Below the pieces are notes generated by a model, which saw nothing but the letters and a program-made list of their open reading frames with translations, was not told the origin of the DNA and did not search any database. A DNA stretch of 40,397 bases from a virus (Duplodnaviria; Heunggongvirae; Uroviricota; Caudoviricetes): the IMG/VR virus record IMGVR_UViG_2541047757_000012, one strand, 5' to 3'. Made by a program: the position numbers and the translations under genes. How positions within the stretch are numbered: position 1 is the first letter of the stretch; every line of letters starts with the position of its first letter. Below are positions 1-39,897 of this stretch, piece after piece.

Positions 1-291
1 AAACGGATTCTTGCGGCTCAGGTATTCAACAGCAAACCCCGATCCCAGCAATTCAACAAAACCGGGCAGATCACCATTATCAAGCACATCCCGTTGCGTT
101 TTATCACTTACAAACTGGGCCAGAGCTGCAGCAATAAAGCTGGCCTGCCGAATAACCTTATTGACTTGCGCACTGGAGGCTTTCCCTGCTGTAAATCCAG
201 ATAAAAGCGCGGGCAACGCTTCCCATTCCTCCTGCGATATAACATTGGCATTTCGATCCGTTGCAAACGCTTTAAAGTCATTTTTCGCCAT
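1..291 (-). CDS. Tail fibre protein, N-terminal fragment (3' end beyond window)
   Basis: Minus-strand frame open from ATG at 291 (TGATG overlap with upstream stop) to the window edge; translation MAKNDFKAFATDRNANVISQEEWEALPALLSGFTAGKASSAQVNKVIRQASF... resembles conserved tail-fibre N-termini; follows the baseplate genes. Confidence 0.55.
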   Translation of the reverse strand, partial: MAKNDFKAFATDRNANVISQEEWEALPALLSGFTAGKASSAQVNKVIRQASFIAAALAQFVSDKTQRDVLDNGDLPGFVELLGSGFAVEYLSRKNPF

Positions 292-971
292 CAGAGTAAT
301 ACTCCCCATGCTCCTACATCAAAACCACTGATGAATTCGTTATCCATATCAAAACCAAAAAATTTTGAGCCTTCCGATGGGGTTTCCACCGAAGGTGTTT
401 CAATGCCACCCGCCCATACCCCGGCGGCTTTTACTGTGAGATACCCCTGTTTAATTGCCGCAATTAACTCACGCGATACATCTGAAATATCAGTATCAGG
501 AAAGACCCAGACCGATATCGTCATGTCCTGGTTATCGACTATCTGCATTCGCAGCCCGGATCCTGCTGTTGCCGCGTCAAGAATTGCCGGAAGCGAATCA
601 TTCCGTCCGTCCCAGTTATTAATCGCAATCTTCGCTTTAAGAATGACACGATAAGTTTCATCGCTGAGATACATGTATCCTGAATCAGGATCGTATGGTC
701 TCTGCCATACCCCCTGATCATATCCAAGCCCGTCGGTATCCCAGCTGAAATAGACACCTGAGATAGGCTGGCTGACAACACGGCTACGTCCGATCCACAA
801 TCCAAGGATGTCAAGTTGCACACCAACCGCAGAGTCAATATCAAATGCACTAATCAGCCCTCTGGTGGCAGCCGCAACATCAATAAGTGGCCGGGTCATC
901 AGATCAACATGCGCAAGAAATTTAGGTTTGGTGGCGTGGTAGTTCGTGATTAGTTCGGTGTATTTGCTCAT
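291..971 (-). CDS. Baseplate/tail protein, gpI-like
   Basis: 226-aa ORF coupled to the upstream J-like gene (overlap 968-971); position and size fit the baseplate wedge protein after gpJ. Confidence 0.55.
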   Translation of the reverse strand: MSKYTELITNYHATKPKFLAHVDLMTRPLIDVAAATRGLISAFDIDSAVGVQLDILGLWIGRSRVVSQPISGVYFSWDTDGLGYDQGVWQRPYDPDSGYMYLSDETYRVILKAKIAINNWDGRNDSLPAILDAATAGSGLRMQIVDNQDMTISVWVFPDTDISDVSRELIAAIKQGYLTVKAAGVWAGGIETPSVETPSEGSKFFGFDMDNEFISGFDVGAWGVLL

Positions 972-2167
972 GACTCCACCGTTATTACGATATTTTCCGG
1001 GGTACAGGACGCAGATTCGTTGTATCTGATATCAATGTTTGATGACGACAAAGCCCCCGGGGATTTCCCAATCGTCAGTTCCTGAATATCGTAATAGCGT
1101 GCATTCCCGCCACTCACCACGCCAAGATTCGCCGGTGAGTAAATGCGACTTAAAAGGACCGAATCACCAATCATCAGACTATTGATATAGTCGGAAATAG
1201 CCTGCTGGATCTGCTGCCCTATCTGTGAGGTATAACCCGTAAAAACTTTTAATTTAATCCGGGCATAAACAGGCACATCACTGGAACGCGAGAATTTGAT
1301 TACATGGGGATTGCCGTATTTATCCGGAACCGTAACGGATGTTGTACCGTGAGTGGCTGTCCCCTGGCCTTTATTTCCTCTGATAGCCTGAGCAATATCC
1401 GTCACATCACCGCCATCCACAATTACAGCAACAGAGTGTGGCGGTAACCCGTTACCGTCCTCTGAACCAGTATCGTTTTCATAGAGTTTGTGGCGGGTTA
1501 CACCGGTAACATTAGAAACAGCACCATCCAGTGCTTCAAATGGGGTTATTGATGGCAACGCAACACTTTGCGACTGACGGATACGTAACTCCGCATCAGT
1601 TTCTGCCGGAGTGCCTACAGTAGCTGCAGCAGGATTGGTTACCGAAACCCAGCCACGGGTTGGCGTATTAATTTCAGTGATAGTTCCAGCCAGCGCCGCC
1701 ACTGCACCACTGACGGAACATGTTGCGGTCGCCATCACTGTACCATCCACGCCGACCACCACTGAAGCAGGCAAACGCCATATCACATTATTACCATCTT
1801 TCACGCTGCCATTAATGATGGTTGTTCCGGCAGTTCCTGTAAGAAGCAAATCAACCGTAGAGTTCGTCGCGCCTTTACGTGAAATACCATTTATTTTCAC
1901 GTTACTGGTCAGTGCAGCCCCATAGCCGGTTGCCGGTGAAAAACAGTTGTAGACAGTTATCGCAGTATTATTGGCATCATGAATCGCCAGCGCCATCAGA
2001 GCCACCATCTGGCCGTCTTTGCTGTCCGGTTCGAGGTAGGCATCACTACCATAAATCTGCTGAAAATAGCTAATCAGGGTGCTGAGTATCGTCTGATAAT
2101 CAGGCGCACTGATCCCCTCCGCGGTTACCTTTGCAGATAAACCGAGAGAATCAAGGTTCAGAGCCAT
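968..2167 (-). CDS. Baseplate J-like protein
   Basis: 399-aa ORF in the V-W-J-I order of contractile-tail phages; stop/start overlap with the upstream gene. Confidence 0.65.
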   Translation of the reverse strand: MALNLDSLGLSAKVTAEGISAPDYQTILSTLISYFQQIYGSDAYLEPDSKDGQMVALMALAIHDANNTAITVYNCFSPATGYGAALTSNVKINGISRKGATNSTVDLLLTGTAGTTIINGSVKDGNNVIWRLPASVVVGVDGTVMATATCSVSGAVAALAGTITEINTPTRGWVSVTNPAAATVGTPAETDAELRIRQSQSVALPSITPFEALDGAVSNVTGVTRHKLYENDTGSEDGNGLPPHSVAVIVDGGDVTDIAQAIRGNKGQGTATHGTTSVTVPDKYGNPHVIKFSRSSDVPVYARIKLKVFTGYTSQIGQQIQQAISDYINSLMIGDSVLLSRIYSPANLGVVSGGNARYYDIQELTIGKSPGALSSSNIDIRYNESASCTPENIVITVES

Positions 2168-2520
2168 TACGCCTCCGATGTAACAGTCGTTATTCCATAA
2201 AGAGTGTCGATTTCAGCGGAAAACATGACACGTCGGGTCGTGGTATCCACCGTCGTATTGAAAGAGAGGATTGATTTAACGCCCTGCGTTTCCAGAATGC
2301 GCTTACGGATCGCCAGGTTGTAGGTTTCCGGCTTCTGCCTGCCCAGCACGGACTGGATCCATGGAGTCCCTTCGGTGGTGTCGAGAAACCATTGCCCATA
2401 CCACAATTCGAATCGCGTTTTTACCGCCTGCGCCACGGCCTCCGGTGAGTTAATCAGCCAGGTGTCATCACCGCTGCCAAAGGTGTAATCACCATCGGCG
2501 TCTTCACGTCTGTATCGCAT
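2167..2520 (-). CDS. Baseplate protein, gpW-like
   Basis: 117-aa ORF between the spike and J-like genes, translationally coupled at both ends. Confidence 0.55.
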   Translation of the reverse strand: MRYRREDADGDYTFGSGDDTWLINSPEAVAQAVKTRFELWYGQWFLDTTEGTPWIQSVLGRQKPETYNLAIRKRILETQGVKSILSFNTTVDTTTRRVMFSAEIDTLYGITTVTSEA

Positions 2521-3272
2521 CAGTTTACCCCATCGGTATTGCTTCCACCGCGCTGAACACCGCCATGAGTGTGCGTATCATCAATTGGCTTGCCGTTAGC
2601 CTTCACGCTACCCAAAAACTCAACAGCACCAGTGATTTTTGAAGCCACACCAGAAACCACAGACCCCACCATGCCCCCCATCCAGGTTAACAGGCCATGA
2701 ATGGTTACTTTCTCAGAAAAATCAGCCAGAGGGGCAACCACATCAAGACCACCCGGAGCGACAATTTTAATTTTCCTGGTATCAGGATTAAGCTCAAAAT
2801 AGGTGCTGCCGTCATCACTACGCAACTGTGTGGCACTGGTATTAATACCGCTAATCTTCCTTGCCTGCGACTGGGGACCGACAATACAAAACGCATCCGA
2901 TAAATCATGCATTCTGTCATCGACCGGCTCCTGTATCCCGCCGCTCTGCCACCAGAAATCAATACAACGATCGGCAAAAATCATCAAACATTCATCACCG
3001 GCTTTAACTGGGAACGTTAGCGTGCATCCTCCGCCGCGCGGGAATACCACTGGCACATCCACCAGCAATGGGTAATTTTGGGTAATGCGGTTGCCGTCAT
3101 TATCCTTTTCAACCGAACGGATAGCAGGCTGCACAACTGCCGTCACCGCATCAGGATCGAATGACTGAATAATGCCAGGCAAGGCGACACGGATCTGGTT
3201 CTTTGTTGTTTCCCGTTCAGATTTGAATGTTTCGGCAAGGTCGCCGCTGCGGGTCTGGTCAGATACGGCCAT
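2520..3272 (-). CDS. Baseplate central spike / assembly protein, gpV-like
   Basis: 250-aa ORF at the start of the V-W-J-I block; ATG at 3272. Confidence 0.55.
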   Translation of the reverse strand: MAVSDQTRSGDLAETFKSERETTKNQIRVALPGIIQSFDPDAVTAVVQPAIRSVEKDNDGNRITQNYPLLVDVPVVFPRGGGCTLTFPVKAGDECLMIFADRCIDFWWQSGGIQEPVDDRMHDLSDAFCIVGPQSQARKISGINTSATQLRSDDGSTYFELNPDTRKIKIVAPGGLDVVAPLADFSEKVTIHGLLTWMGGMVGSVVSGVASKITGAVEFLGSVKANGKPIDDTHTHGGVQRGGSNTDGVN

Positions 3273-39663: not shown

Positions 39664-39740
39664 TTTTAACGTAAATGGATTGTTAAATGTATTTTGGTTG
39701 TGATATAACCAAAAAAGACCGGAATACAGAAATTCGAGTA

Positions 39741-39760
39741 AATTTCGGGGAATTTCGGGG
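39741..39760. repeat. Perfect tandem 10-bp repeat AATTTCGGGG x2 in the int-proximal att arm
   Basis: Read directly; possible arm-type Int/accessory-factor site. Confidence 0.5.
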
Positions 39761-39794
39761 AGACGCTTGCAACTGATTGATTTTAAATACAATT

Positions 39795-39897
39795 AAAAAA
39801 AGACCGAATACGATTCCTGTATTCGGTCCAGGGAAATGGCTCTTGGGAGAGAGCCGTGCGCTAAAAGTTGGCATTAATGCAGGCTTAGTTGCCTTGC
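39795..39897 (-). ncRNA. sdsR: sRNA SdsR (RyeB)-like host gene
   Basis: Minus-strand sequence GCAAGGCAACTAAGCCTGCATTAATGCC...GACCGAATACAGGAATCGTATTCGGTC + T7 matches my recollection of SdsR; sigma-S-like -10 CTATTCT upstream (about 39905-39911); terminal hairpin 39802-39828. Confidence 0.55.

Follow-up and report, generated by a model that had tools for sequence, protein, structure and literature searches.

Salmonella phage SEN34 (genus Brunovirus) has a lambda-like genome and myovirus morphology by transmission electron microscopy (TEM), is induced by mitomycin C and forms plaques (PMC5261728). The UMB923 phage, for which 683R1 and SEN34 are the closest records, is released spontaneously from urinary Escherichia coli and gives plaques and contractile tails (PMC12945033). 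These two phages make the joining of lambdoid early and lysis genes to this type of myovirus module an established kind. The DNA considered here, IMG/VR virus record IMGVR_UViG_2541047757_000012 (Caudoviricetes; 40,397 nucleotides, in full referred to as the window), very probably carries most of a further such element, a temperate prophage of ~42.4-42.9 kb with lambdoid organisation in which a virion module of the type found in SEN34 and vB_EcoM-611R5 (611R5) is combined with early genes from the pool to which those of the Rac prophage also belong. Positions 1-39.8 kb of the window form the right-hand part of this prophage and the last 0.6 kb is host DNA. New here is a member of the kind that has Rac-pool early genes and sits at the small RNA (sRNA) gene sdsR.

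A preliminary description of the same DNA had seen a mosaic of three modules with different affinities, and sharp transitions in BLASTN identity profiles, taken in 500-nt bins along the window, confirm it. Identity to 611R5 is 94-98% over 1-17.7 kb and then 0% save for the endolysin and holin, identity to vB_EcoS-666R9 (666R9), a complete record of a Rac-type siphovirus, is 0% up to 20.5 kb and 90-96% over 20.5-23.9 kb and 27.6-30.9 kb, and matches to Rac of E. coli K-12 are confined to 28.4-38.3 kb. The sharp switches lie at ~17.7 kb and ~20.4 kb. The fraction of the window aligned by BLASTN is 44% for 611R5, 40% for SEN34, 25% for 666R9, 12% for K-12 Rac, 1% for lambda (the R gene only) and 0% for P2. 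The whole-genome comparison to Rac and Rac-type phages that the preliminary description had suggested thus returns shared early cassettes but little overall relatedness. Expressed as identical bases over prophage length, the values are ~43% for 611R5, ~32% for SEN34, ~24% for 666R9 and ~11% for K-12 Rac. On this measure, which is a BLASTN approximation and not VIRIDIC, similarity to SEN34 and Brunovirus (~0.32 for SEN34, ~0.43 for 611R5) is below the guideline of the International Committee on Taxonomy of Viruses for a genus, which asks for genome-wide nucleotide similarity of 70% or more.

The listing of open reading frames (ORFs) divides the window into two transcription blocks, one leftward from 1 to ~31135 and one rightward at 31232-39663, with a GC content of 0.50-0.56 in virion genes and 0.40-0.50 in early genes. 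Gene order runs from integrase and excisionase through early-left recombination and host-killing genes, repressor, a cro-like gene, YdaT (cII-like), initiator, DnaC-like loader, nin-like genes, a Q-like gene and lysis genes to terminase, head and contractile tail. This is the canonical lambdoid module order, with functions arranged as in lambda. The virion module comprises the following features:

1-290, minus strand: first 96 codons of the tail-fibre gene, which starts at 290 and exits the window (translation)
291-971, minus: DUF2612 wedge protein (Pfam; PDB match to XM1 gp17)
968-2167, minus: Baseplate_J protein (Pfam)
2167-2520, minus: sheath initiator (PDB match to Pam3 gp21)
2520-3272, minus: central spike with gpV apex motif (Pfam)
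3334-4400, minus: variable cargo slot inside the baseplate operon, between spike and hub (59-residue ORF, 176-residue protein with three transmembrane (TM) segments, 117-residue secreted protein)
4400-5467, minus: baseplate hub (Pfam E217_GP41, 23.1 against 27 bits, below the curated cut-off)
5470-5772, minus: plug (Pfam Pam3_gp18)
5772-6359, minus: Dit-like protein (Pfam Dit_like)
6359-8365, minus: tape-measure protein (Pfam PhageMin_Tail, 24.6 against 33.2 bits, below the curated cut-off)
8334-8519, minus: -1 frame extension of the tail assembly chaperone (DUF6889), without a start codon and open from the chaperone stop
8522-8974, minus: tail assembly chaperone (Pfam Phage_TAC_15)
8978-9418, minus: tail tube (Pfam KPP10_Orf10, DUF3277)
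9429-10574, minus: tail sheath (Pfam DUF3383; XM1 gp6, E 7e-41; Pam3 sheath)
10578-17626, minus: neck and head genes (tail terminator, head-completion, adaptors, DUF4054, cement, DUF2213, Mu-F-like head morphogenesis; Pfam, PHROGs)
12825-13766, minus: major capsid protein (DUF2184)
16160-17626, minus: portal (DUF1073)
17626-19744, minus: cassette of the two terminase subunits, the large one of PBSX type (Terminase_3) (Pfam; phrog_370)

Judged by homology, positions 1-19744 hold, in tightly packed genes, everything for head, neck, contractile tail and terminase, bar the fibre end. In full-length tblastn alignments, the virion proteins up to and including the portal are about 97-100% identical to those of 611R5 and 65-95% to those of SEN34; the corresponding values are 98-100% and 68-89% for the distal baseplate proteins (291-3272), and 97-100% to 611R5 from hub to tape measure. 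The partial fibre protein matches the fibre N-terminus of 611R5 and of the E. coli relative CE0021a at 100%, and the neck and head proteins have orthologues in 611R5, SEN34, AVS0790 and DEC5E with which they align from end to end. The collinear set by which a SEN34-like phage is recognised (DUF3383 sheath, KPP10_Orf10/DUF3277 tube, DUF2184 capsid, DUF1073 portal, Baseplate_J/DUF2612) is present. As the virion parts have relatives in the solved myoviruses XM1 and Pam3 and in Pfam families named after E217, a contractile tail can be predicted from the homology of the sheath to solved sheaths and from the TEM of SEN34 and the UMB923 phage.

The portal-to-tail-fibre gene order, the layout of Q-like gene, holin/endolysin/spanin and terminase, and the variable small-gene slot between hub and spike are all shared with SEN34 and with vB_EcoM-611R5, 606R2, 683R1 and 689R2. 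The differences lie elsewhere: SEN34 and 611R5 do not have the Terminase_3/PBSX type of the window (36% identity over 52% of the length) and use another integrase and attachment (att) site, while the early half consists of Exo/Bet/Gam, CI/Cro/CII and O/P genes in SEN34 and includes a DNA polymerase/helicase set in 611R5. The terminase allele differs from that of AVS0790 and DEC5E as well as from those of 611R5 and SEN34; its proteins are 99-100% identical to those of CE0021a, and its DNA is ~83% identical to Klebsiella prophage-derived phages. One end of the 611R5 record (ON470588.1; 1-2254) carries host genes, namely tadA, pgpC and the gene of a yfhH-like regulator, and this 'complete genome' looks like a predicted prophage region rather than a packaged genome.

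A baseplate of the V-W-J-I kind, as named in the preliminary description, stands as a functional and positional analogy to P2, with an analogous spike-initiator-J-wedge-fibre order, but not as homology. A P2 relationship of the baseplate was rejected, since no structural protein of the window gave a tblastn match to P2; the endolysin, which matches P2 gpK at 55%, is the sole window protein with a P2 match, and the links that remain (Baseplate_J, gpV apex motif, sheath-initiator fold) are at family level only. In the cargo slot, the 176-residue three-TM protein has a GC content of 0.36 and its own terminator-like hairpin downstream. Proteins of this slot have no Pfam match and fall in PHROGs of unknown function, and other relatives carry unrelated genes at the same place (DUF4282, DUF2335, thioredoxin-domain and others). 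A defence function was considered for the 176-residue protein and dropped, as the PADLOC match is only weak, PycTM-like and probably driven by the TM segments.

Upstream of the virion genes lies the lysis and late-control block (19968-23895):

~20243-19968, minus: o-spanin with lipobox LSGC (Pfam LysC, PF23793), overlapping the i-spanin
20131-20523, minus: i-spanin, 130 residues, with an N-terminal TM segment
20507-20983, minus: endolysin (87% amino acid identity to lambda R; PDB 1AM7, E 4e-95)
20987-21337, minus: holin (Pfam Phage_holin_3_1, PF05106, lambda S family), with an MKM dual start
21676-22272, minus: 198-residue membrane protein with two TM segments (GC 0.40; phrog_11870)
22467-23129, minus: Q-like antiterminator (Pfam DUF1133; Phage_antitermQ, PF06530, 27.0 against 26 bits, just above the cut-off)
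23006-23296, minus: YbcO nuclease (Pfam)
23296-23895, minus: DUF1367 protein (Pfam)

Lysis had been described as lambda-like, which is borne out for the endolysin and the holin but not for the spanins and Q. The endolysin contains the WSEGT motif that surrounds the reported catalytic Glu of lambda R. The o-spanin runs 163 nt beyond the stop of the i-spanin, so that the pair has the overlapped arrangement of P2 LysB/LysC and not the embedded Rz1 of lambda. Identity with lambda Rz/Rz1 and lambda Q was rejected: tblastn gave no match, and Pfam places the proteins with the LysC type and DUF1133. The affinity of the block is with 666R9, which shares the series DUF1367-YbcO-Q-like-holin-endolysin at 92-100% protein identity (95-99% for the late-control proteins at 21676-23895). 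Otherwise the likeness to lambda lies in the functional gene order and in an integrase with 39% identity and an arm-binding domain, and lambda-type CI, O, P, Exo, Bet and virion genes gave no tblastn match in the window. Terminator-like hairpins at 22386-22361 and 21452-21431 flank the gene of the 198-residue membrane protein, between the Q-like gene and the holin. This slot corresponds to the position of the stx genes in Shiga toxin (Stx) phages.

The early region extends from the accessory genes to the end of the early-left operon:

24455-27644, minus: accessory genes (hok/sok, 274-residue ORF, Mom-like, small ORFs)
24455-24779: hok/sok type I toxin-antitoxin (Pfam HOK_GEF; Rfam sok at 24605-24779)
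25065-25889, minus: 274-residue ORF, matching different PHROGs along its length
26165-26695, minus: Mom-like/XF1762 protein (PHROG 'Mom-like DNA modification protein', E 9e-43)
27645-30432, minus: replication module (DUF977, YdaW (DUF1627), YdaV (DnaC/IstB-like loader), YdaU-like initiator)
29608-30396, minus: YdaU-like initiator (phrog_2509, replication initiation)
30474-30896, minus: YdaT, CII analogue (95% to K-12; weak match to PDB 8BT1)
30893-31135, minus: Cro-like helix-turn-helix (HTH) protein, 80 residues (Pfam HTH_3, not YdaS_toxin)
31136-31231: divergent control region, 96 bp, with two different palindromes
31232-31651, plus: HTH-only repressor, 139 residues (Pfam HTH), with a putative terminator after the gene
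32502-38233, plus: early-left operon (DicF-like sRNA, kilR, ydaE, racC, recE, recT, ralR/lar, DUF1187; Rfam, Pfam)
32502-32553, plus: DicF-like sRNA (Rfam), upstream of kilR
33566-36691, plus: recE, 1041 residues
36691-37794, plus: recT, 367 residues (Pfam RecT)
37843-38052, plus: ralR/lar
38051-38229, minus: RalA antitoxin sRNA (Rfam, 216.7 bits)

Two blocks of this region are held in common with K-12 Rac, 666R9 and phage Rac-SA53, namely the kilR-ydaE-racC-recE-recT-ralR-DUF1187 operon with its RalA sRNA and the ydaT-ydaU-ydaV-ydaW block. Protein identity to K-12 Rac is 94% for KilR, 95% each for RacC, RalR/Lar and DUF1187 and 74% for YdaE in the former, and 95% for YdaT, 96% for YdaV and 95% over 63% of the length for YdaW in the latter. 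Within these blocks the similarity is interrupted. The YdaU-like initiator is 81% identical to K-12 over the C-terminal 47% only, but 97% over its full length to the initiator of 666R9. RecE is 53% identical to K-12 RecE over the N-terminal 700 residues and only 29% in the nuclease end, and RecT has no BLAST similarity to K-12 RecT. Both the nuclease end and RecT lie in a segment (34757-38282) whose DNA has 96.7% identity to that of phage Rac-SA53 (KU052037), with an identical RecT protein (100%). On these alignments, the RecE nuclease end and its cognate annealase RecT appear to have moved together. The segment 32369-33573, in which the DicF-like sRNA lies, aligns at ~87% to the kilS-kilR region of K-12 Rac.

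Beyond the two shared blocks the window departs from Rac, as it lacks IntR/XisR, the ttcA site, RacR, YdaS, trkG, ParB and the siphovirus tail genes. The gene classes named in the preliminary description are nearly all present in some form (YdaT, YdaU-like, YdaV, RecE, RecT, RalR/Lar, R, spanins, Q-like, sheath, tube, baseplate), the exception being YdaS: the gene in that place encodes a Cro-type HTH protein without similarity to K-12 YdaS, the repressor is not RacR, and neither of the two has a tblastn match in K-12 Rac, RacR and YdaS included. The control region between them holds the palindromes AACACACCTTGTGTT and ATCACGATTCGTGAT, which are candidate operators. Three perfect 19-bp palindromes, GTAACGC-N5-GCGTTAC, stand at 30011-30029, 30218-30236 and 30410-30428, at ~200-nt spacing and against 0.08 expected by chance. 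They fall within the 5' half of the initiator gene or a short way upstream of it, and occur only in loci with the same N-terminal allele of the initiator. These palindromes are candidate origin or initiator-binding sites that may co-vary with the DNA-binding half of the initiator, by analogy with lambda O.

Among the accessory genes, the Mom-like protein could serve in DNA modification or anti-restriction, as predicted from its PHROG match. The 274-residue ORF is probably a fused or chimeric accessory gene. CE0021a and AVS0790 have an identical sequence, portions of which the NCBI pipeline annotates as fragments of pseudogenes (DUF551 partial). With hok/sok and RalR/RalA, the window holds two type I toxin-antitoxin pairs.

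The right end of the element is defined by its integration genes and by the adjoining host sequence:

38334-38621, plus: excisionase (Pfam Exc)
38587-39663, plus: lambda-type tyrosine integrase, 358 residues (Pfam Phage_integrase, Arm-DNA-bind_1)
39794-39825: attR core, 32 bp, placed by alignment to K-12 (right junction at 39794) and by attL of the source scaffold and relatives
39791-39935: sdsR/ryeA sRNA pair (Rfam SdsR_RyeB, SraC_RyeA)
40056-40397, minus: yebY (host)

All catalytic residues of lambda Int (R, K, H, R, H, Y) are conserved in the integrase, and neither Int nor Xis has a tblastn match in K-12 Rac or 666R9. The 32-bp core, which reads TAAAAAAAGACCGAATACGATTCCTGTATTCG at attR, recurs at attL, both in the source scaffold and in relatives, with both att sites flanking a single element, and the host flank is 98.5% identical to K-12. 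The core mapping places the prophage in the 3' end of sdsR (ryeB), between pphA and yebY. A transfer RNA gene as att site was rejected: the scan detected zero such genes in the window, and the site is an sRNA gene. Occupation of this site has precedent, since attachment of phages at ryeB has been documented (Balbontin et al. 2008, cited in PMC7380047 and PMC3603311). According to PMC7380047, phage PhiW104 likewise inserts within ryeA, where ryeB/sdsR has its 3' end, and duplicates the 3' end of the sRNA; it differs in its Salmonella host and in the stated length of its core, reported as 23 bp against 32 bp here.

The terminator hairpin of SdsR is kept at attR, with -15.8 kcal/mol both in the lysogen and in K-12. 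The attR core has two differences from K-12 attB, one of which turns a U.G wobble of the terminator stem into U-A and the other of which lengthens the U tract. The annotated 5' end of K-12 ryeA lies on the attL side, so that the prophage splits the 5' end of ryeA from its remainder.

The left end lies outside the window. Positions 1-12167 are 100% identical to scaffold KE699866.1 (GCA_000457635.1), in which a run of ~1470 N (12170-13639) follows directly after window position 1, inside the tail-fibre gene. Because position 1 adjoins this run, it is not the prophage end, and the fibre, Tfa and invertible segment are unassembled rather than absent. Beyond the gap follow, in order, the remnant of a Pin-like invertase (31 codons), a 62-residue ORF, attL and pphA, which puts attL, beside pphA, ~2.6 kb to the left of window position 1. 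MPGR01000001.1, which differs from window positions 1-12167 by 1 nt, carries a full fibre of 229 residues and Tfa; a second, alternative Tfa and fibre end is present in inverted orientation, and the invertase is truncated in the same way. These two left-end loci give the length of ~42.4-42.9 kb for the whole element. The preliminary description had set its extent at 1-39811; the right end agrees, since 39811 falls inside the attR core, while the left end reflects the scaffold gap and not a boundary.

The closed genomes CE0021a, AVS0790 and O55:H7 DEC5E all combine this virion module with the lysis block, the Rac-type early genes, the integrase and the sdsR site, and this recurrence of architecture and site, seen in many sequenced E. 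coli, marks a lineage and not a one-off. At least 80% of window positions 1-25000 is covered in 35 of 5426 complete E. coli genomes, while some part of the spike-to-hub query (window 2400-4500) is matched in 353 genomes. Within the lineage four cassettes vary, and by sequence comparison these appear to be exchanged: the terminase pair, the cargo slot of the baseplate operon (3334-4400), the N-terminus of the initiator with the putative origin, and the recE 3' part with recT. The early genes are not restricted to the lineage either. PP818812.1, 'Actinobacillus phage vB_Apl-pPE4', has the same integrase (98%), Xis, Cro-like protein (100%), YdaT and RalR, joined to a third, unrelated contractile-tail module. 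The early genes of vB_Apl-pPE4 are of the E. coli-type Rac pool, and the host stated for it looks doubtful. In the literature that could be searched, no paper was found that describes the ON4705xx phage records or Rac-SA53.

How the element came by this composition, and whether it is alive, can be read in more than one way. The preliminary description saw in it an intact relation of a prophage type that is normally defective, and one could go further and see an intact member of the Rac lineage that shows Rac as it was before its decay in K-12. The synteny with Rac from kilR to DUF1187 and from ydaT to ydaW, several proteins at 94-96% identity, the near-identity to Rac-SA53 over 34757-38282 and the presence of RalA and DicF/KilS-like sRNAs all speak for such descent. 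Against it, the alignment extends to only 12% for K-12 Rac and 25% for 666R9; the integrase, excisionase, repressor and Cro-like genes have no relation to those of Rac, and the att site is sdsR instead of ttcA; and the Rac remnants ynaA, lomR and stfR, like the H-M-L-K-I genes of 666R9, are those of a lambda-type siphovirus and not of a contractile tail, with no tblastn match from ynaA, lomR, stfR or the 666R9 structural genes to the window proteins. As the same early genes are also joined to the tail module of vB_Apl-pPE4, they are better seen as a portable cassette than as a lineage marker. The BLAST data already point towards grouping with SEN34-like phages and away from the ttcA-integrated Rac elements, so that descent within the Rac lineage appears quite improbable. 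The claim of the preliminary description is thereby little supported, and Rac-type elements are not defective as a rule, since the records of 666R9 and Rac-SA53 carry virion genes. The label 'Rac' over-reads a shared early cassette. A junction of two prophages in a draft scaffold would equally produce a mosaic, and the source is indeed a draft scaffold with an N-gap adjoining the window. The window itself is free of N, however, and the junction at 17.6-20.5 kb is collinear and 96-98% identical in the closed CE0021a and AVS0790 and collinear in DEC5E. Both att sites flank one element, and four collinear assemblies contradict an origin from separate molecules. An assembly chimera was therefore rejected as next to impossible.

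A more serious alternative is that the prophage is grounded, complete-looking in the window but unable to yield infectious virions. This would fit the reduction of the invertase to 31 residues in both the source scaffold and MPGR01000001.1, the assembly gap in the tail-fibre/Tfa/invertible region of the source scaffold, and the pseudogenisation of both tail fibre and invertase in CE0021a, which indicates that members of the lineage do decay. It would also fit a repressor that is not SOS-cleavable by its domain content, and hok/sok, RalR/RalA and kilR could favour the keeping of a dead element. The search of INPHARED adds that no phage record there spans both halves of the window, so a virion with exactly this combination has not been deposited in that collection. 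All these points weigh against an active phage. On the other side, the check for frameshifts and truncations proposed in the preliminary description turned up no disrupted gene within the window: head, tail, lysis, replication and integration genes are full length compared with orthologues in four to five relatives, without insertion sequences or split ORFs. Even the start-less -1 extension of the chaperone is still open, attL and attR are both present, and MPGR01000001.1 (1 nt different in 12167) has a complete fibre with Tfa. An invertase is dispensable for virion production, as with Gin of Mu and Cin of P1. A cryptic state is thus somewhat unlikely, and we put the odds of this copy being able to yield infectious particles at about one half.

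Whether mitomycin C would be the right trigger is a separate matter. The Pfam search detected no S24 autopeptidase domain in the repressor and the window contains no LexA box of the form CTGT-N8-ACAG, both of which also count against a readily inducible phage; no antirepressor domain was found among the window proteins with Pfam and PHROGs. An SOS-responsive switch would therefore be absent as far as domain content and the LexA-box search can tell. Inducibility by mitomycin C is not to be assumed and SOS inducibility is doubtful, and we would give mitomycin C less than an even chance of being the right trigger.

From the gene content, homologies, att sites, collinear lineage and module boundaries observed, a life cycle can be outlined that would rest on putative promoters, terminators and origin and on this copy being functional. 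The HTH-only repressor would hold the divergent early promoters. On derepression, the Cro-like protein, YdaT, initiator and loader would start replication, with the three palindromes as candidate origin. The Q-like protein would then read through the terminators upstream of the holin to allow expression of lysis and virion genes, the Terminase_3 enzyme would package the DNA, and Int and Xis would excise the element at the 32-bp core. A bolder reading, of rather less than even probability, is that the sdsR-integrated lineage is a fully functional temperate myovirus with a non-SOS switch formed by a RacR/DicA-style HTH repressor, a Cro-like protein and YdaT. Its insertion may also rewire the RyeA/SdsR sense-antisense pair of the host by parting ryeA from its promoter, an effect reported for PhiW104 in Salmonella. 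On this reading the Rac early region would be portable, a cassette paired with at least three unrelated virion modules, that of the Rac/666R9 siphovirus, that of the SEN34-like myoviruses and that of the pPE4-type myovirus.

The element is an ordinary product of phage module shuffling and poses no challenge to the current view of phage mosaicism. These observations are of use mainly for annotation and bookkeeping. On the strength of the well-known K-12 gene names, such elements tend to be called 'Rac-like' by readers and by prophage callers. The virion, integrase and immunity genes are not those of Rac, and the proper place of the element is among the SEN34-like lambdoid myoviruses of the sdsR/ryeA hot spot. 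If the bolder reading is true, similarity of early genes would be uninformative about the virion once made by K-12 Rac. If the lineage is active, its occupation of an sRNA locus together with a non-SOS repressor would deserve a modest experimental look. Beyond this, the prophage offers a clean worked example of cassette exchange within a single prophage lineage.

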